Positions 1 through 14,129 of a stretch of 14,129 nt of DNA are shown piece after piece. This stretch comes from Promethearchaeota archaeon (GTDB taxonomy: Archaea; Asgardarchaeota; Odinarchaeia; Odinarchaeales; JBHLKK01): the NCBI GenBank assembly GCA_048939465.1, contig JBHLPL010000047.1, positions 1 through 14,129 on the forward strand, in the 5' to 3' direction. The notes below the pieces were generated by a model that saw only the letters and a program-made list of their open reading frames with translations, had not been told where the DNA came from and made no database searches. The stretch's first letter is position 1. Every line of letters begins with the position of its first letter. Made by a program: the position numbers and the translations under genes.

Positions 1-599
1 ATCGTGACCTGGTGCAAGCTCTCAGGAACAAGAGACCAAAAATCCCACCACATTGTGGTCGACCTAAGATTGTTTTGTGGAAGGCGCTTTTGTGTATGGA
101 TGAAGTCCATAAATTTCATCGGATCGCGTACAAAGAACACGGGTGTGTTGTTGCCAACCAAATCCCAGTTGCCGTCTTCGGTGTAGAATTTTATAGCGAA
201 TCCTCTAACGTCGCGTACGGTATCGGCTGATCCTCTTTCACCGGCAACAGTAGAGAAGCGAAGGAATACATCGGTCTTCTTACCGACTTTTGAAAAAGGT
301 TTGGCTTTTGTGTAGCGTGTGATATCGTTGGTCACAGTAAAAGTGCCATGTGCTCCTGCTCCCTTAGCATGGACAACACGTTCAGGAATACGCTCCCGAT
401 TAAAATGCGCCATTTTTTCAAAAAGGGCAAAATCTTGTACCAAGAGCGGGCCACGTGGCCCAGCAGTAAGGGAATTCTGATTATCACTGACGGGGACGCC
501 GGATGCGGTAGTCAAAGTCTTTTCTTCAGTCTTCTTTGTTTTCTCTTTCTTCAGGTTACTCGTTTTATTTCCCTCCTTTGGATTTAATCTAACAGACAT
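1..599 (-). CDS. katA: Monofunctional heme catalase (small-subunit type), 5' part only; runs off the left edge of the window
   Basis: Manual translation of the minus strand from ATG at 599: ...[59 protein letters not shown]...[61 protein letters not shown]...[15 protein letters not shown]. Contains the catalase distal-His signature [11 protein letters not shown] and the GNN catalytic Asn. No stop before position 1. The exact start is uncertain. Confidence 0.97.
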
Positions 600-619
600 T
601 AGTTTATTTATATATTAAC

Positions 620-630
620 TAGGTTACCTA
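620..630. promoter_or_regulatory. Short palindrome TAGGT-T-ACCTA in the catalase/PerR intergenic region
   Basis: Perfect 5-1-5 inverted repeat seen in the sequence; function inferred from position only. Confidence 0.25.
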
Positions 631-664
631 AAAATCCTCGATACTACAATTCTAGAGTGAATTC

Positions 665-687
665 TAAATAGAACTAACTTCTATTTA
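665..687. promoter_or_regulatory. Candidate operator: perfect 9-5-9 inverted repeat TAAATAGAA-CTAAC-TTCTATTTA
   Basis: Perfect dyad seen in the sequence, between divergent catalase and Fur/PerR genes and just upstream of the regulator's BRE/TATA. Confidence 0.55.
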
Positions 688-695
688 AATTTTAT

Positions 696-712
696 CCGAA
701 ATACTTTATATC
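696..712 (+). promoter_or_regulatory. Archaeal BRE/TATA promoter of the Fur/PerR gene (CCGAAATAC-TTTATATC)
   Basis: TTTATATC at 705-712 preceded by a purine-rich BRE-like CGAAAT, ~23 nt upstream of ATG 735, the geometry of a leaderless or near-leaderless transcript. Confidence 0.55.
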
Positions 713-734
713 TTACTTTGCCTAATGGAACCGC

Positions 735-1118
735 ATGAAAGAGAAGTTGAAGAAGCATGGGCTGAGGGTCACTCCACAAAGACTTGAGTTAATAAGAATA
801 CTCAAAGAGCAGGGAAGACATCACCCGTCATTTAACGATATCTGCAATGCTATAAAGAGCAAGTATCCGAATATAAGCCGGTCCACAATACTCAACAATC
901 TAAAAGAAATGACCAAACTGGATCTTATCAGTAGCTTTAGCCATAAAGGAGAGACCCGCTACGAGATGAATCCAGAACTCCATATAAATTTGGTGGCGCC
1001 AGATGGCACAATAAAAGACATCAAAGATGAAGAGATTCTGAAACATCTGGACAAGATAGTGAGATTAATAAACGAGAAAGAAAGACCGATTAAAAGCCTA
1101 CTAATCTTGGCTGAATAA
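735..1118 (+). CDS. perR: Fur/PerR-family transcriptional regulator lacking the structural CxxC motifs
   Basis: N-terminal GLRVTPQR, HPS and STILNNL winged-helix motifs; C-terminal RYE...HIN...KDI dimerisation/metal region; divergent from catalase, the typical PerR context. Family is clear; the PerR subfamily is inferred from context. Confidence 0.85.
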   Translation: MKEKLKKHGLRVTPQRLELIRILKEQGRHHPSFNDICNAIKSKYPNISRSTILNNLKEMTKLDLISSFSHKGETRYEMNPELHINLVAPDGTIKDIKDEEILKHLDKIVRLINEKERPIKSLLILAE

Positions 1119-4467: not shown

Positions 4468-7400
4468 TCATAAGTATAGACTTAATGTAGATTGTGTTGA
4501 TTTTTCATCTTCAAACAGCGAGTTTATGCTCATTTCGATTATTTCTAGACGATGGCTTAGATACTGTGGCAAATCATACTTCTGAATTATCTCTTTGGCA
4601 ATTGAGAGATATTTTTTGATTCCTCCCTGGTAGACTGTGGGTACTATCTTTCCTTTGCACCTAGGACAGTGTCCGACTAGAGGTATCCTCCTAAATTTCG
4701 AGTTGCAGGACATACATCGGAACTGTTGTTTGGTGAATTTGACTAGATTCCCGACCATATCAGGAATGAAGTGAGATGTGATAACGCGTTCTGCTACATC
4801 CTTTAGGTCGACCGCACGGATTTTTTCGGCTATTTTGAGTTGAGCTCGCACTTTTTCTGCCATTGTTTTGAACCGTTTGTATGCAGTTGCGCTCGGCCCA
4901 CTGCTGATGCTCGTAGTGTTGTGGGAGAAGTTGAAGCCCTCGTACTGCTGGGGGGTGTTCAGTCTGTGCGATACTAGATCTATTAAGGGTTCGGCGTCCT
5001 TTGGGTTGCTGATTTTCATGGTTTTTTCGTAGAATTCTAAGGGGTAGGAAGAGGCGGTGTCCATGTTGTGAGCCTCGTCATCGATTTCGAGAGGATTTAT
5101 TTTAGTGGAAATGACGAGGGGGGCGTCCATCATTCCTCCTCGTTTCTCGGGTAAATAATAACGTGAGAAGTTTAAAAGGGCGTCTAGGACCAGTATCAAG
5201 GAGTCTTCGTCCCCGTCACATTGCTTAGTTAAAAGGTTATTCATTAACATATTATGTGAATCAATTCGACCTTCTTTTGGTATTTCTACTTCTAGGCAAT
5301 AAGAGGGCTGTTCTAAGATTGAGTGCTTAAGGCTTTTTATTTGATCAATAATTACTTTTTCGCCAACTCTCCATAGCTTGCTTGTCTTTGGTAATCCTTT
5401 TTTAATTAGAATACGTAGTGATTCAGCCTTGGATTTCTTGGTCAGCTTCAGATGTTCTAAAAGCAATTCATTCTCTAAACCTTGAATATTGACATGGAAT
5501 AGACTTGAATTCTCTTTAGGCTTTTTACCCAGTTCTCTGTACCTTTCTAATACTTTCTTGCCATACCTAGCTCCCTTTTGGTGAGATATTCTAGTAAAGA
5601 TTCCTAGTCCGCAAAGGAAAAGGCAGTAATCATGTGCAAGCTTCTCATTTGCAGTATAGATTGTAATCCTTCGACTGCGGTGAATTACAGATCCGTCTCC
5701 ATCTATCAGAGAAGAAAGAAACTCAAACTTTAGATTCAAAGGAAGAGTGTAAACAAATCCTGGAATGCGCTTAGTATGAGCATTAGTTCCTGCATTCCAG
5801 GCATAAGATATAAGATAGCTGTGTATTCGACTAGAGTGTACTAGTTGCTTATTATCCCTCGAATAGTAAGGTTCAGATCCGAAAAGAGTTTTGATGAGAC
5901 TTCTAACATGAGCTCGAAGCTCAGGATCAGGTAGACTAAAATTCGTCTGATAGCACCCATAACAGTCCCTTGAATAGCCTTCAGAAATATAGTATCCAAG
6001 CAAACGGAGAAGATCCGTTGTAAAAGGAATGTACGGAGAGACTGTCTTATCATCACGAGCCATGCCCAGCCGGGCTGTTTTCGGTATTTCATCCCAGTCA
6101 AACACTTCTTCTTTCCAGAGGACCTCAAGATGGCTAAGCGGTATAGATTCATACCAGCTACTATTGAAGGGTTTGCGATACGGTTTTTCGGGAAGTTTTG
6201 GCGAAAAATGTTTTCCTATGATTAGCGAAATTTGCCGTTTGGTAAGTTTTTCATCCTTTTGCAGTTCAAGGATGTACTTTCGAAGCTTCTTCCTAATCCA
6301 GTCGCCTGCGCCTCGAAGACGTACCTGGTGTTTAAATTTCCGGAATTTGAGCGTATCGGGCAGTTTTGTAGATAGTTCCTTCAGGACGTTTACGTGATCT
6401 GGAGGCCGAATTTCAGGAATAGGCAGACTCGTAAGCGTCGGTATAAGATTGCCAGGCTCTAGAAATGCAGCCTTTCTACCTTCAAATTTCTCAGTCTGTG
6501 GATTATAGACGAGCGCCATATGTTCTGGTGTCATCTTGAGCTTACGACCGGTGGCGGTGGTGATGGAGATCCACCGATTGTGTGTTCCTCTTATCCAGTG
6601 TCTAATAGGCTGGAGGATCGGCTCACCCGTCTCCGGACTGAGGCTTATGGCACGGTACTCCTGATTCAGATTCTCAACAGCCACGGTGCCAAAATCATCA
6701 ACTACGGTTCGTTTTGCACCGTTCTGCAGAGCATTTTCCACGAAATACCCGATCGGCTTCGAAACTACTTCTCCAGTTTCCGCATTATATACAGGGAGCG
6801 CCTCGCCCCCGGCAACGCAATTCCGCCTCTTGGCAGCATGCCAGTACGGATGAGCATAACACACATTGGTCCTCGTAAACCCAACGATCCGCCCGATAAT
6901 ACCTGCCGACGTGTGAGGCGCCAACCCGATAACAAGATGCCCGATCAAATCCTCTTCATTCTTCACACCGTAGTGGGCATCCATTCCATACACTCTCGTG
7001 AGAAGATCGTCAACATACTTTGCGACCTTCACCAAATACCGGGCACATTTCTCCGGCACAACTATGTCTTGAGGTTTCAGTTCCAGTATTTGATCCGGTT
7101 TTTCCAAAGATTCGCCTTTGTGGTCCTCTAAATATCCCAACTCCTTTAGCTTTTCAACCGGAGTATTAACCTCACCGGGAACAAAATGTGTCAAAGGCGC
7201 ATCTGTCGCATCAAAACGAACGGTTCCATCCTTGTAGACAAAAATATCGTGCTTTGCACGCAAGATACCTTTTTCGAGGGGTTCTGGGACCTTAAATTCA
7301 CTAGTTAGACCCCTTACGCCTTTTACCGCAATGCCTTTTAACGCGATTTCTGATTTGGGAATCTTCATTCTTTTTAGCGCATTGTCAAACAACTTGGCGA

Positions 7401-9543
7401 TGTTTATGTCTGTCTTTCCAAACGGTCTTGTCATCCCTCCACAAGCAGGACATTTCTCATCATCTGAGGGGGTGGCACAGTTCACACATACTCTCTTTGC
7501 TATTGTGTCAATGTTACAGATAGGGCATTTGACAGTAAATCCTGTTTTCCCGCACCTTGGACATTTTCGATATGCTAAATCCACTTCTATGGTAGGCCGT
7601 TTCTTTGTCGCGTTCAATATGTCTCTTGACTTACCACCCGCAAAACCTATAGGAAATAAAGAATGTATTGGGGGGGACATTTTCCTTTCCTTGGCTTTCT
7701 CAGGTCGGCCCATTCGCGCTCCGACATATATTGGGGCCTTTGCTCGTATTTTTACTCGAGAGATGGCATTCAATACTTCTAAGGTACTCTTATCTGAAGA
7801 CATTTCAGCAAAAAAAGCATCCTTCTCGGCATCTTCTGGCGCTAAGCTTTCAACAAGAGACGGAGCATGCGAAGAAATAACTATGAGACCGTTTTCAACT
7901 TGGTGCGGGATGCAGATCTTCTCCAAAATCTCTTTTACTTCAGCACTCAGTTTCATGCGAACGCTAACAGGCATCCCATCTTCTCTCTGAATTTCACTTT
8001 CACGCAGATATTTTCGTAGTCTTTCAAGTTCTTTGATAGTTATGTCATGCCAATGATAGGTGAAATCCGGGTGTAAGGGGATATCTAACTTGTGAGAAAT
8101 CTTTATGCTTTCGACGGCTGTAGGCTTGTTGTGTAAAGGAGACTGGAGAATGTCTCTTAACCGGGATACATCGATTACCTCACTCAATTGGGAAATATCT
8201 TCATTAAACTCATTCTTGATCTGATAAGCAACCTCTTCTACCCATATTTCTTCACAATATCCAGAAGGAATTAATGGGTGATTGTTCTCCAGGAATTCAC
8301 CAAAAGCCACCAGTAAATCGCCTAAGAATAGAATTTTGCTGATTTCCTTCTTGAAGGACCTTGCTTCACCTATGGAATTGATTTTGACAACATCACCGTT
8401 CCTTAAACGTACTATTGGGCCCTCTATGCTATCCACGGGAAGCACTATGGCGCCTTTTCCAGGATGCTCCGTTCTAATATGAGTGCCCGGAGCAAGAAAA
8501 CCTTCCAGAGTAATCATTGTCGCCGGATTGATTCCAACTGCAGCCAGTCCTGTATTTCTAGACCGTCCATATCTTATGCGAAACCCACCAACTTCTGCGG
8601 GGTGCGAAAAAACCGGGCGCCCAGCTATTACGTCGGCCATGTATTTCCTATCCGGCAAGACTCGCGGGAGATCCTCTTGCGAAACGGCATCTTCCTCTTT
8701 TTTCCACCTCTCTAGATCAGCAAGCCAGTCCCACCCACCGATGCCAATTGTCTCCACAATCCTTAGAAGCTTCGGCGCTTTTGCAATCATACCATCATTC
8801 AATACAAGTACCGCTCCGCCGCGTATTTGATTCGTTTCGACTCTCTTAAGATCTCTATGAGAAGAGACCTCTACACGCTCGGTCGCCTCCCCCGTTATTT
8901 CCACCGGGATGTTCTTAAGAGCAATCTCTCTTTCTTGACGCGTTGCAGGATACTGAAGGTTCATGATCTTGTCATAAGTCTCGACCTCTTCAATGAATCG
9001 ATCAATCTCCTCTTCAGTCGGCTTATATCTGTCCAATCTAAGCTTCTTACGTACAAAGTCACCCACCAGTACAGTTTGAGCGGTTTCTGTTCCCCCAGCA
9101 GCCCGTATGGGTCCTGAAAAATAAACTGCAAGATACCTTGATCCGTCGAAGTTTGTTTTGATCTTGACATAAGCGATACCCTCTATTGGCCCGGCAGTTA
9201 TCCCTTCAGTTAGGATTGCCAGAGCGGCCCTAATAGCCATATCAGCAGCCTTCTCATCGTTCATTCTTCCGAATTTCCCATGTACTATCTCTTCGGCGAT
9301 TTTGAAGGCAATCTCTTCTCGAGGGATAGACTCAGTCAATTCTCTTATTCTTTCGGCAACTCCTTTTGGGCCTATTAGCCCTTCCACACGAGCTGCCACA
9401 TCTTCTGCAGGATGTATTTCGGGCTCTGTTTCAGGGTCGATGCCAAGTTTGCGTGCTTTCTTGGCAATTTCATAGAGACTATAAATCTCTTCTTTAATCG
9501 AGTCGAAGTATTGCTGGATGGAGTCACTTGCGTTTGGCAACAT
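4468..9543 (-). CDS. polC: DNA polymerase D large subunit DP2 (intein-containing precursor 1691 aa; mature ~1158 aa)
   Basis: DP2 motifs GPIRAAGG, FRIRYGRSRNTGLA, GARMGRPEKAKER, EPLEKGILRAK, HAAKRRN/CDGDED (catalytic), central and C-terminal Zn fingers; AGGAG Shine-Dalgarno 6 nt upstream of ATG 9543. Confidence 0.98.
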   Translation of the reverse strand: MLPNASDSIQQYFDSIKEEIYSLYEIAKKARKLGIDPETEPEIHPAEDVAARVEGLIGPKGVAERIRELTESIPREEIAFKIAEEIVHGKFGRMNDEKAADMAIRAALAILTEGITAGPIEGIAYVKIKTNFDGSRYLAVYFSGPIRAAGGTETAQTVLVGDFVRKKLRLDRYKPTEEEIDRFIEEVETYDKIMNLQYPATRQEREIALKNIPVEITGEATERVEVSSHRDLKRVETNQIRGGAVLVLNDGMIAKAPKLLRIVETIGIGGWDWLADLERWKKEEDAVSQEDLPRVLPDRKYMADVIAGRPVFSHPAEVGGFRIRYGRSRNTGLAAVGINPATMITLEGFLAPGTHIRTEHPGKGAIVLPVDSIEGPIVRLRNGDVVKINSIGEARSFKKEISKILFLGDLLVAFGEFLENNHPLIPSGYCEEIWVEEVAYQIKNEFNEDISQLSEVIDVSRLRDILQSPLHNKPTAVESIKISHKLDIPLHPDFTYHWHDITIKELERLRKYLRESEIQREDGMPVSVRMKLSAEVKEILEKICIPHQVENGLIVISSHAPSLVESLAPEDAEKDAFFAEMSSDKSTLEVLNAISRVKIRAKAPIYVGARMGRPEKAKERKMSPPIHSLFPIGFAGGKSRDILNATKKRPTIEVDLAYRKCPRCGKTGFTVKCPICNIDTIAKRVCVNCATPSDDEKCPACGGMTRPFGKTDINIAKLFDNALKRMKIPKSEIALKGIAVKGVRGLTSEFKVPEPLEKGILRAKHDIFVYKDGTVRFDATDAPLTHFVPGEVNTPVEKLKELGYLEDHKGESLEKPDQILELKPQDIVVPEKCARYLVKVAKYVDDLLTRVYGMDAHYGVKNEEDLIGHLVIGLAPHTSAGIIGRIVGFTRTNVCYAHPYWHAAKRRNCVAGGEALPVYNAETGEVVSKPIGYFVENALQNGAKRTVVDDFGTVAVENLNQEYRAISLSPETGEPILQPIRHWIRGTHNRWISITTATGRKLKMTPEHMALVYNPQTEKFEGRKAAFLEPGNLIPTLTSLPIPEIRPPDHVNVLKELSTKLPDTLKFRKFKHQVRLRGAGDWIRKKLRKYILELQKDEKLTKRQISLIIGKHFSPKLPEKPYRKPFNSSWYESIPLSHLEVLWKEEVFDWDEIPKTARLGMARDDKTVSPYIPFTTDLLRLLGYYISEGYSRDCYGCYQTNFSLPDPELRAHVRSLIKTLFGSEPYYSRDNKQLVHSSRIHSYLISYAWNAGTNAHTKRIPGFVYTLPLNLKFEFLSSLIDGDGSVIHRSRRITIYTANEKLAHDYCLFLCGLGIFTRISHQKGARYGKKVLERYRELGKKPKENSSLFHVNIQGLENELLLEHLKLTKKSKAESLRILIKKGLPKTSKLWRVGEKVIIDQIKSLKHSILEQPSYCLEVEIPKEGRIDSHNMLMNNLLTKQCDGDEDSLILVLDALLNFSRYYLPEKRGGMMDAPLVISTKINPLEIDDEAHNMDTASSYPLEFYEKTMKISNPKDAEPLIDLVSHRLNTPQQYEGFNFSHNTTSISSGPSATAYKRFKTMAEKVRAQLKIAEKIRAVDLKDVAERVITSHFIPDMVGNLVKFTKQQFRCMSCNSKFRRIPLVGHCPRCKGKIVPTVYQGGIKKYLSIAKEIIQKYDLPQYLSHRLEIIEMSINSLFEDEKSTQSTLSLYL
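5221..6819 (-). mobile_element. Intein (533 aa, DP2 residues 909-1441) with LAGLIDADG homing endonuclease
   Basis: Inserted between HAAKRRN and CDGDED. Block A CVAGGEAL, block B LKMTPEH, block C LLGYYISEG, block E FLSSLIDGDG, block F SYCLEV, block G NNLLTKQ/C. Removing it restores the contiguous RRNCDGDED. Confidence 0.97.
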
Positions 9544-9886
9544 AAGAAGCTCCTAAAACTCTTTTCCCCCTTTTCGCTTCTTCAGAGTATACTCTACAAA
9601 GTAAAACTGTGTTCCACTCTTTCGTAGGTTTCTTTGAATTCCTATAGTCCCTATTAGCTATGTACTCCCTTTTCTCAATACAATTGCTGCAAATAGAGTG
9701 TCTCGGGTCCATAGGTCCGTCACAGCTGCCACAGTGAAGGATTAACACTTCTCCCAGATTTCCTAATTTGGACCAAAGGTATTCGTTCTCATCATATTTC
9801 GGCGAGAAACTGGGCCAGATATCATAAAGATCCCTATTTTCTAGGGTTTCTTTCAATTCGGTAAAGAATTTTTCGAAGGATGTCAT
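9524..9886 (-). CDS. Hypothetical 120-aa protein with CX2C-X10-CX2C putative Zn-binding motif, overlapping the polC start by 20 nt
   Basis: ATG at 9886 preceded by GGGGAGA SD-like sequence; fills the gap between GT2 and polC in the same orientation; HCGSCDG...ICSNC motif. Confidence 0.8.
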   Translation of the reverse strand: MTSFEKFFTELKETLENRDLYDIWPSFSPKYDENEYLWSKLGNLGEVLILHCGSCDGPMDPRHSICSNCIEKREYIANRDYRNSKKPTKEWNTVLLCRVYSEEAKRGKRVLGASYVAKRK

Positions 9887-12519: not shown

Positions 12520-13737
12520 TTGAAATCGTTAATCCAAGATGCGCTTAAATACGCAAGGTATGGGCAGGGTTACGGTGTTGAGAAAGAGGTAAACGGAGCT
12601 AAAATACTTGTTATGGGTACCGGGGGCGCCGGCAACAACACAATTGATAAGTTGGTTTCCATGGGCATTAAGGGAGCAGAATGTATTGCGGTAAACACCG
12701 ACAGACAGCATCTAGATTTTGTCAGATCGGATAGGAAAATCCTGATTGGAGGAGAAGTTACCCGCGGATTGGGTGCAGGAGGCTATCCGGAGCTGGGAGC
12801 CGCTGCGGCAGAAGAAAGCCGTGAGTCCTTGAGAGAAGTTCTTTCAGGTGCAGATTTAGTATTCATCGCTGCGGGTATGGGCGGTGGTACTGGAACTGGC
12901 AGTGCTCCAGTAATTGCAGAGATCGCCAAAGAATCGGATACAATAGTAGTAGGCGTAGTTACTATGCCATTCAAGATTGAAAAGGGAAGAATTGGCAAAG
13001 CAAGACTTGGGCTAAAGAACCTGCAGGAACATGCAGATACAGTTGTGGTAATCGACAACAACAGACTGTTGGACATAGCACCACATTTGCCAATAAGAAA
13101 GGCATTCAGCATAGTTGATGAGGTGTTGGCCAATATGGTTAAAGGAATCACTGAGACTATTTCTTTGCCTAGTCTGATAAACTTGGATTATGCGGATGTC
13201 AAGTCTATAATGAGCAGTGGCGGAGTGGCTTTGGTAGGATTAGGAGAAGCAGGCGGATCACCTGGAACTCCCGAGAATAACGAGAAGCAAAGCATCTTTG
13301 GGGGAGGCAGATCAGAAGACGTCAATAGGAAAAAGCTTAACAGAGTAGATGAAGCTGTCAGAAACGCCCTTAACAGTCCCCTCTTGGATATAGACTATGA
13401 AGGAGCTACAGGCGCCCTGATTCATATAGTCGGTGGAGAAGACTTAACCTTGGAAGAAGCAAATAGAGTTGGCGACATGATCACAAGTAAGATGGATCCA
13501 GATGCCCAGGTAATCTGGGGCGCAAGAATTTCTCGAAAAATGAGCGGATTACTCCGGGTTATGCTGATTTTAACAGGGGTTAGGAGTCCCCAGCTGCTTG
13601 GGCGATGTGACGATGAGTCTGATATAGGGCAATCCACTTGGGATCGAAATGCATTAGTACCACGGGGATTGACTTCAAGGTTTAACATAGCAGACCGCGA
13701 TATTGGGAATCTAGGACTCGATAGAATGGACACATAA
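12520..13737 (+). CDS. ftsZ: Cell-division protein FtsZ, FtsZ2-type, with an unusual S7-H9 loop insertion
   Basis: GGAGNN, GLGAGG, GMGGGTGTG signature, T7 loop LINLDYAD, SPLLD, VIWGARI, TGVRSPQLLG, C-terminal LGLD motif; TTG start with AGGAGG SD (12507-12512) overlapping the cdrS stop. Confidence 0.97.
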   Translation: MKSLIQDALKYARYGQGYGVEKEVNGAKILVMGTGGAGNNTIDKLVSMGIKGAECIAVNTDRQHLDFVRSDRKILIGGEVTRGLGAGGYPELGAAAAEESRESLREVLSGADLVFIAAGMGGGTGTGSAPVIAEIAKESDTIVVGVVTMPFKIEKGRIGKARLGLKNLQEHADTVVVIDNNRLLDIAPHLPIRKAFSIVDEVLANMVKGITETISLPSLINLDYADVKSIMSSGGVALVGLGEAGGSPGTPENNEKQSIFGGGRSEDVNRKKLNRVDEAVRNALNSPLLDIDYEGATGALIHIVGGEDLTLEEANRVGDMITSKMDPDAQVIWGARISRKMSGLLRVMLILTGVRSPQLLGRCDDESDIGQSTWDRNALVPRGLTSRFNIADRDIGNLGLDRMDT

Positions 13738-13778: not shown

Positions 13779-13994
13779 TTAGTTGCCATCCCAGCTCCTG
13801 AACAAGTTTCTTAAGATTTTTGCACTCATGTTCTCGATCTTAAAACGGTAGATTTTGATACGGCCAAATCTTTTTTCCTGTATTAGACCCAGCGTTTTGA
13901 GAAAATCAAGATGTTGTGCCGTAGCTTCATGATTTAACTTGGCCCTTCTTGATATCTCAGAGAGAAGCTCGTCAGCCAGTAGATCACATCCCAA
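13779..13994 (-). CDS. Small winged-helix (ArsR-like) DNA-binding protein; start uncertain (TTG 13994 preferred, ORF open to ATG 14090)
   Basis: LSEISRRAKLNHEATAQHLDFLKTLGLIQEKRFGRIKIYR is an HTH plus wing pattern. The upstream 32 codons contain a TATA-like TTTAAAAA (14033-14026) and do not look protein-like. Confidence 0.75.
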   Translation of the reverse strand: MGCDLLADELLSEISRRAKLNHEATAQHLDFLKTLGLIQEKRFGRIKIYRFKIENMSAKILRNLFRSWDGN

Positions 13995-14111
13995 GTACGA
14001 AATAAGATTGTGTAAAGTAAAGTTATTTTTAAATATTAAGCTTTCGGGACAAAGTATATTACGATACTTTTTGTAGATTTTACCACCCATCTTCTGAATT
14101 GCGTTGTTTGT

Positions 14112-14125
14112 AGGATAATTATCCT
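14112..14125. promoter_or_regulatory. Perfect 14-bp palindrome AGGATAATTATCCT
   Basis: Seen directly, upstream of the winged-helix gene at the window edge. Confidence 0.35.
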
Positions 14126-14129
14126 CTAA

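Follow-up and report, generated by a model that had tools for sequence, protein, structure and literature searches.

The FtsZ2 protein encoded in the stretch of 14,129 nucleotides considered here (henceforth, the window), from a member of the Odinarchaeia in the Asgard archaea, contains a genuine insertion of 26 residues in the loop that joins strand S7 to helix H9, corresponding to the position of the tubulin M-loop. Such a loop is spread throughout the class and is tentatively best read as a flexible side loop that tunes the association of one FtsZ2 ring with the next. The feature had not gone unnoticed before, given that the insert of the orthologue OdinFtsZ2 was published in 2025 as a 'CetZ-like loop' (Kumari et al., EMBO J 2025, PMC12583498) and that CetZ1 typically carries a long loop here. 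While the loop itself is thus already published, its class-wide spread and its evolution within the class are shown here, together with its boundaries (residues 245-274), its residues of note (the aromatic residue at its centre and the basic residues of its second half) and naturally occurring variants in a second family. As the loop had been published before and as its role in the window protein is one that we infer, the gain is modest. The subject nevertheless bears on the origin of microtubules, where it is an open question how single FtsZ-like filaments came to join side by side into tubes, and OdinFtsZ2, which makes stacked rings, has already been purified.

The assignment of the protein to FtsZ2 in the initial annotation was borne out. 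The product of the gene scored 401.7 bits against TIGR00065 (cut-off 295.2) and shares 63% identity with UniProt A0AAF0D3V8 (P0004 in the alignments), that is, OdinFtsZ2 of Ca. Odinarchaeum yellowstonii LCB_4. The nearest named homologues are found in Odinarchaeia, followed by FtsZ proteins of Thorarchaeia and other Asgard archaea. In the phylogenetic tree, the window protein grouped with OdinFtsZ2 on the FtsZ2 side, with the FtsZ1 encoded by the same genome (contig C106; 45% identical to the FtsZ2) lying across a 100/100 branch. When the predicted structure was used in a fold search, only FtsZ entries were found among the best 50 matches, with 1FSZ being matched over 313 aligned residues (Z 40.8, rmsd 2.3). 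Likewise, the protein is far nearer to FtsZ (E 1e-95) than to CetZ (4B45/4B46; E 1e-14 to 1e-13), and it contains both of the FtsZ motifs GGGTG[T/S]G and NxDxxD. The genome in question (1.96 Mb, 91% complete) belongs to a sister family within the same order as Ca. Odinarchaeum and, in addition to FtsZ1, encodes OdinTubulin (contig C134) and SepF (contig C2). As judged from its sequence, the LGLD stretch near the C terminus of the window FtsZ2 is a candidate SepF-binding motif. The positions of this and the other features considered are listed in Table 1.

Table 1. Features of the ftsZ2 region, given as window positions, with FtsZ2 residue numbers in parentheses.
Feature	Position	Strand	Basis or remark
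cdrS-like ribbon-helix-helix gene, 56 aa	12338..12508	+	Pfam RHH_1, E 3.7e-9; ends 11 nt before ftsZ2
ftsZ2	12520..13737	+	405 aa, TTG start; Odinarchaeia (Asgard), orthologue of OdinFtsZ2
GTP-binding T4 signature GGGTGTG (aa 121-127)	12880..12900	+	Read from the sequence; invariant throughout alignment A1
T7 catalytic loop NLDYAD (aa 221-226), intact	13180..13197	+	HHalign to OdinTubulin T7 loop, probability 93.6
Strand S7 (aa 235-244), N-terminal anchor of loop	13222..13251	+	Model strand E235-245; LVGLGEA invariant in Odinarchaeia
S7-H9 loop, 31 aa (aa 244-274), with 26-aa insertion	13249..13341	+	Alignments, anchor spacing
First half of loop (aa 246-257), polar and acidic	13255..13290	+	pLDDT <50, predicted disordered; dN/dS 0.27-1.3 (genus)
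Central SIF-x-GG (aa 258-263), holds central aromatic	13291..13308	+	SIF invariant in genus
Basic second half of loop (aa 265-274), modelled as N-terminal extension of H9	13312..13341	+	Models, low to moderate confidence
Helix H9 core (aa 275-284), C-terminal anchor of loop	13342..13371	+	R275 invariant; model
C-terminal LGLD (aa 398-401), GID-like candidate SepF-binding motif	13711..13722	+	Inference; L398, G399 and D401 nearly invariant

The loop had been described as comprising 31 residues at codons 244-274, about 26 of them inserted, and both readings held. The spacing between fixed anchors on the two sides of the loop is 40 residues in the window FtsZ2, as compared to a mode of 14 residues (225 of 317 FtsZ sequences). 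In agreement, alignment to M. jannaschii FtsZ1 breaks at this point, with query residue 245 being paired with residue 257 and query residue 274 with residue 260; alignments to FtsZ proteins of solved structure are likewise interrupted between query residues 245 and 274. The AlphaFold model places the insert between a strand comprising residues 235-245 (S7) and a helix that ends at residue 284 (H9). Residues ~247-268 (247-267 in the window FtsZ2) were assigned pLDDT values below 50 in the models of both the window FtsZ2 and the O. yellowstonii orthologue, and the loop is accordingly predicted to be disordered. In the same models, H9 runs back to about residue 265 (residues 265-284 here and 264-283 in O. 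yellowstonii, at low to moderate confidence), such that the free loop may comprise some 20 residues instead of 31. The M-loop is the loop between S7 and H9 (PMC8456036). Because the T7 loop was matched to that of OdinTubulin by HHalign, the strand that follows H8 is S7, and the loop that comes next occupies the M-loop position, as the initial annotation had proposed; this placement rests on the order of secondary structure elements in both models together with the T7 anchor, the HHalign match between the FtsZ2 and tubulin profiles covering residues 98-227 only and thus stopping before the loop.

The possibility that the loop is an assembly artefact was ruled out, since an independent mangrove metagenome contig (run X3, 9.6 kb) that spans the whole stretch contains 12 substitutions, none of them in the loop, and no indels, and since relatives also carry the insert. 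A related strain in another metagenome run presents a diverged loop that is 3 nt longer. Derivation of the loop from a local duplication or repeat was similarly discarded, as repeats occur at chance level only, as was the notion of an intein or mobile insertion, the insert being of 26 residues and containing no motifs and no Pfam match.

Loop residue G245 corresponds, in ungapped numbering, to R229 of M. tuberculosis FtsZ and S231 of E. coli FtsZ, both of which form part of lateral interface 1, located on the S7/S10 face, an interface that was tested in E. coli cells by crosslinking and suppressor mutants (PMC6050046). The insert is therefore found on a known side-contact face of FtsZ. In bacteria, this interface (R229-D301 in MtbFtsZ and S231-D304 in EcFtsZ) involves a 5-residue loop and a small antiparallel patch of ~210 square angstroms (PMC6050046), whereas in the window protein an insertion begins at the R229/S231 equivalent. 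By analogy, an insert of 26 residues must alter or block a lateral contact of the bacterial type.

Examination of other FtsZ proteins revealed the long loop (+21 to +34 residues) in all 13 Odinarchaeia-type FtsZ2 clusters found, showing that the insert of the window protein is no singleton. With this query, no FtsZ2 was obtained from one same-genus genome (78% complete). By contrast, the FtsZ1 of Odinarchaeia and the FtsZ2 of other Asgard families contain a short loop (+5 residues at most). Among 149 distant FtsZ representatives (50% clustering), 148 fell between -3 and +6 residues, with several at +4 to +6, and one was at +91. This last protein (P0227; ENA ERZ1758345, L139:4001-5338) is an unrelated, acidic (halophile-like) FtsZ, the gene of which lies directly after sepF; its 91-residue insert, likewise at S7-H9, gave no Pfam match and, as it is known from one contig only, may be an artefact.

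In a tree calculated after the loop had been cut out, the long-loop FtsZ2 proteins formed one group (support 84/59) that was nested among short-loop FtsZ2, and one loop change was obtained in 86% of the bootstrap trees. The simplest reading of the sequences, for which support is moderate and not strong, is that the loop was gained once in the ancestor of the Odinarchaeia, in agreement with the independent gain suggested earlier. Were the loop a true homologue of the tubulin/CetZ M-loop, either inherited or transferred, it would represent a step from FtsZ to microtubules. Such homology is in keeping with the shared structural position, with the presence of OdinTubulin in the class and with the resemblance of OdinFtsZ2 rings to OdinTubulin coils, yet is contradicted by the nesting of long-loop among short-loop FtsZ2. 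Moreover, the tubulin of the same genome presents a short loop of ~10 residues with no evident likeness to that of FtsZ2, OdinTubulin does not have the contact insert (280-282) seen in alpha/beta-tubulin (PMC8956254), and similarity to CetZ is, as noted above, remote. Common descent of the two loops is thus considered extremely improbable. Given the nested tree position, the variability of the loop and the profile match that ends at residue 227, the loop resembles the M-loop in position alone, as was originally stated.

Within the genus, dN/dS was 0.013 for the FtsZ2 core, 0.28-0.64 for the whole loop, and hence below 1, and 0.27-1.3 for the first half of the loop; overall, the loop evolves 20-50 times faster than the core. 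Between families, identity in the loop is 12-24%, as is the case for the disordered C-terminal tail, as opposed to 73-90% in the core. Loop length is 25-31 residues in 12 of the 13 clusters and 25-38 residues overall. An aromatic residue is found in the middle third of the loop in 12 of the 13 clusters (shuffle p 0.0006) and in all eight of the less related loops (p 0.007), and basic character is stronger in the second half of the loop than in the first (p 0.002), although these p-values are overstated, as the aromatic and charge windows were chosen post hoc and the sequences are related. The window loop, which is polar and includes only 3-4 hydrophobic residues, aligned with Odinarchaeum loops better than did shuffles (p 0.001-0.07). 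The loops of the window genus aligned with those of the P0007/P0009/P0010/P0012 group no better than did shuffles (p 0.29-0.67).

With these values in hand, the loop could be seen as a tolerated and nearly neutral insert at a permissive surface site that was fixed once in the Odinarchaeia ancestor and that has been drifting ever since. The near-neutral rate of the first half, the failure of the loops of the window genus to align with those of the aforementioned group better than shuffles, the predicted disorder and the acceptance of insertions at this site elsewhere (+91 residues in the unrelated FtsZ, +4 to +6 residues in several others) would all agree with such drift. At the same time, none of the 13 clusters, which span 73% core identity, has lost or shortened the loop, loop length is kept within narrow limits, the central aromatic residue and the charge gradient persist, SIF is kept throughout the genus in spite of synonymous codon changes, and large inserts at the site are rare (1 of 149 distant representatives). 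Neutral drift is, as such, held to be unlikely, albeit a reading of some weight. As a separate observation, two close strains (P0002 and P0003) differ by 6 amino-acid changes in the ~31 sites of the first half of the loop (13255-13290), where ~1 would be expected; outside this region, ~3% of synonymous sites differ. Local recombination, slippage or diversifying selection may account for these differences. These differences are not taken as evidence of positive selection in this half of the loop, as metagenome contigs can be mosaic and as synonymous changes cluster there too.

The initial annotation had also drawn attention to QSIF as a possible short linear motif. SIF is indeed unchanged across the genus although its codons vary synonymously, whereas Q is replaced by N in the proteins of 5 of 7 same-genus relatives. 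SIF is, moreover, absent from all other Odinarchaeia FtsZ2 aligned. QSIF was hence ruled out as a class-wide motif, with SIF standing as a feature confined to the genus. A conserved island within a fast-evolving disordered loop is the usual sign of a short linear motif, and the small island seen here could, in the form of SIF-x-GG in the window protein and of aromatic-x-hydrophobic elsewhere, bind an Odinarchaeia-specific partner, such as OdinTubulin or a neighbouring protein. Across the Odinarchaeia genomes that were searched, the loop occurs together with OdinTubulin; this co-occurrence, however, amounts to a single evolutionary event. Furthermore, the putative motif differs between families, and the invariant 3-residue patch is not significant on its own, as the genus shows no variation at 12 of the 30 loop positions. 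Finally, the last 47 residues of OdinFtsZ2 are needed for SepF binding (PMC12583498), such that SepF, the sole known partner, is lost without them though the loop stays. Recruitment of a dedicated partner through such a motif is accordingly deemed improbable.

Turning to the published orthologue, the insert in A0AAF0D3V8 is of +25 residues, as compared to +26 residues in the window FtsZ2, and falls between the same anchors. [quoted passage not shown] The two proteins are encoded alongside the same set of components (FtsZ1, FtsZ2, OdinTubulin and SepF) and their loops are weakly alignable (p 0.01). Still, they come from different families of the same order and the loops are only ~23% identical, that of the window FtsZ2 being Gly- and Glu-rich and containing SIFGGG, and that of OdinFtsZ2 being Ser-rich. 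OdinFtsZ2 is described as making stacked spiral rings, mostly pairs, whereas OdinFtsZ1, which does not contain the loop, makes single filaments (PMC12583498). As FtsZ1 and FtsZ2 differ at about half of their residues, this difference in filament shape cannot be assigned to the loop in particular. It is further described that OdinFtsZ2 alone does not pellet, a behavior that the authors ascribe to ring shape or to a lack of bundling, that it co-pellets with FtsZ1 and that, by itself, it does not bind liposomes (PMC12583498). The loop was not deleted in that work (PMC12583498), nor was any loop-deletion study found in the literature searched.

In the discussion of the same paper, it was speculated, in analogy to CetZ, that the loop touches and helps shape the membrane (PMC12583498). 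The basic second half of the loop, with its aromatic residue, would be suited to such contact. Against this stand the inability of OdinFtsZ2 alone to bind liposomes, the polar character of the window loop and the observation that a CetZ1 M-loop mutant binds liposomes as does the wild type protein (bioRxiv 10.1101/2024.04.08.588506), rendering membrane contact by the loop very improbable.

The M-loop of Haloferax volcanii CetZ1 is, at 14-26 residues, long and flexible (PMC9856176), and its hydrophobic tip is required for polymers and rod shape (bioRxiv 10.1101/2024.04.08.588506). Like it, the window loop is a long and flexible loop with a hydrophobic patch that occupies the M-loop site in a prokaryotic member of the tubulin family; unlike it, the window loop belongs to another protein family and was, according to the tree, gained separately. 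In addition, the CetZ1 tip is leucine-rich and amphipathic and its function has been shown, whereas the window loop would, from its composition, offer a single aromatic patch. As for tubulins, the mini-microtubules of Asgard AtubAB are held by one M-loop phenylalanine, with F275/F278 being found in M-loop residues ~270-280, and with Tyr/His283 being used in alpha/beta-tubulin (PMC13394414). The tubulin M-loop resembles the window loop in its S7-H9 position on the protofilament side and in the presence of an aromatic residue near its middle, but is much shorter, docks in a defined pocket and serves tubes of parallel, straight protofilaments. By contrast, the window loop is ~30 residues long, variable and predicted to be disordered, and the orthologue makes curved rings. 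At best, the window loop would work like a long M-loop of the CetZ1 type, and is not a tubulin M-loop by descent. A convergent, flexible M-loop, with the central aromatic residue docking on the next ring and turning protofilaments into stacked rings or tubes, is rather unlikely. If true, this would be the third independent use of the S7-H9 site for multi-filament tubes, after tubulin and CetZ1, and would have arisen in an Asgard class that also has OdinTubulin.

In the preferred reading of ring-to-ring tuning, a flexible surface loop would have been acquired in FtsZ2 by the Odinarchaeia ancestor and would stick out from the side face of the protofilament. In a ring that curves in the usual plane, as judged from the geometry of FtsZ and tubulin rings, that face would point along the ring axis, towards the next ring. 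So placed, the loop may set the fit of neighboring curved FtsZ2 filaments, and perhaps of FtsZ1 filaments as well, with GTP binding, hydrolysis and SepF anchoring being left to other, intact parts of FtsZ2. This could be achieved in two manners. In the first, which is conceivable though on balance unlikely, the loop would act as a tether, providing a weak link via the central aromatic residue and the basic second half. In the second, which is more doubtful, the loop would serve as a bumper, covering the S7/S10 face and preventing tight sheets. With either tether or bumper, one side contact would be favored, leading to pairs or short stacks of rings, as seen with OdinFtsZ2. Since, as previously argued, a single usable antiparallel side contact halts assembly at pairs (PMC6050046), two-ring particles fit the tether and the bumper alike. 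The loop may or may not promote sheets, bundles or tubes, as was initially proposed; since the orthologue does not pellet, it could equally be a spacer. Tuning is favored by the retention of the loop in all 13 clusters despite the low loop identity between families, by its place at lateral interface 1, by a whole-loop dN/dS below 1, by the persisting aromatic residue and charge pattern, by the stacked rings of OdinFtsZ2 as opposed to the single filaments of OdinFtsZ1 and by the analogous M-loops of CetZ1 and AtubAB, while divergence in the manner of a disordered tail, unlike what would be expected of a fixed and specific interface, argues against it. No partner pocket was identified. Also against a decisive role, minirings and helical tubes are made by bacterial FtsZ, which does not have the loop; lateral contacts likewise occur there (PMC6050046). 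The role in lateral contacts that was initially suggested appears plausible, given that FtsZ is known to use this site as a lateral interface and that the rings of the orthologue are stacked.

Upstream of ftsZ2, the product of the cdrS-like gene matched the NCBIfam CdrS model with an E value of 2.2e-10, which is nonetheless under the cut-off of that model. A cdrS-like gene is found 5' of ftsZ2 in this genus and in most Asgard ftsZ2 loci. In the loci compared (L003-L006, L031 and L118), no such gene was found adjoining ftsZ2 in those of the genus Odinarchaeum (none within 1.5 kb), in which respect the OdinFtsZ2 locus differs from the window, or in L118; whole-genome searches of four such genomes returned weak matches (E 1e-4) or none. 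On the other side, a small winged-helix gene (13779-14129, minus strand) converges on ftsZ2. In relatives (L111-L117), the winged-helix gene is overlapped by a cdc6/orc1 gene, placing cdrS-ftsZ2 between the genes encoding the large subunit of DNA polymerase D (DP2) and Cdc6 in this genus. The window DP2 (1691 residues; 4468-9543, minus strand) contains an apparent intein of ~535 residues that ends in Gln before Cys. The DP2 of one relative (L111) gave a LAGLIDADG match, while a 1024-residue copy in another (L113), which is either truncated or intein-less, gave none. Overlapping the start of the DP2 gene is a sequence encoding a 120-residue protein (9524-9886, minus strand) with Cys-x2-Cys-like pairs, which is conserved in relatives and gave no family match above threshold. 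Finally, at the start of the window (3-1118 and 1175-2236), a catalase gene that is truncated by the end of the stretch is, by eye, divergent from a gene encoding a Fur/PerR-like regulator, followed by a DNA methyltransferase-like gene.
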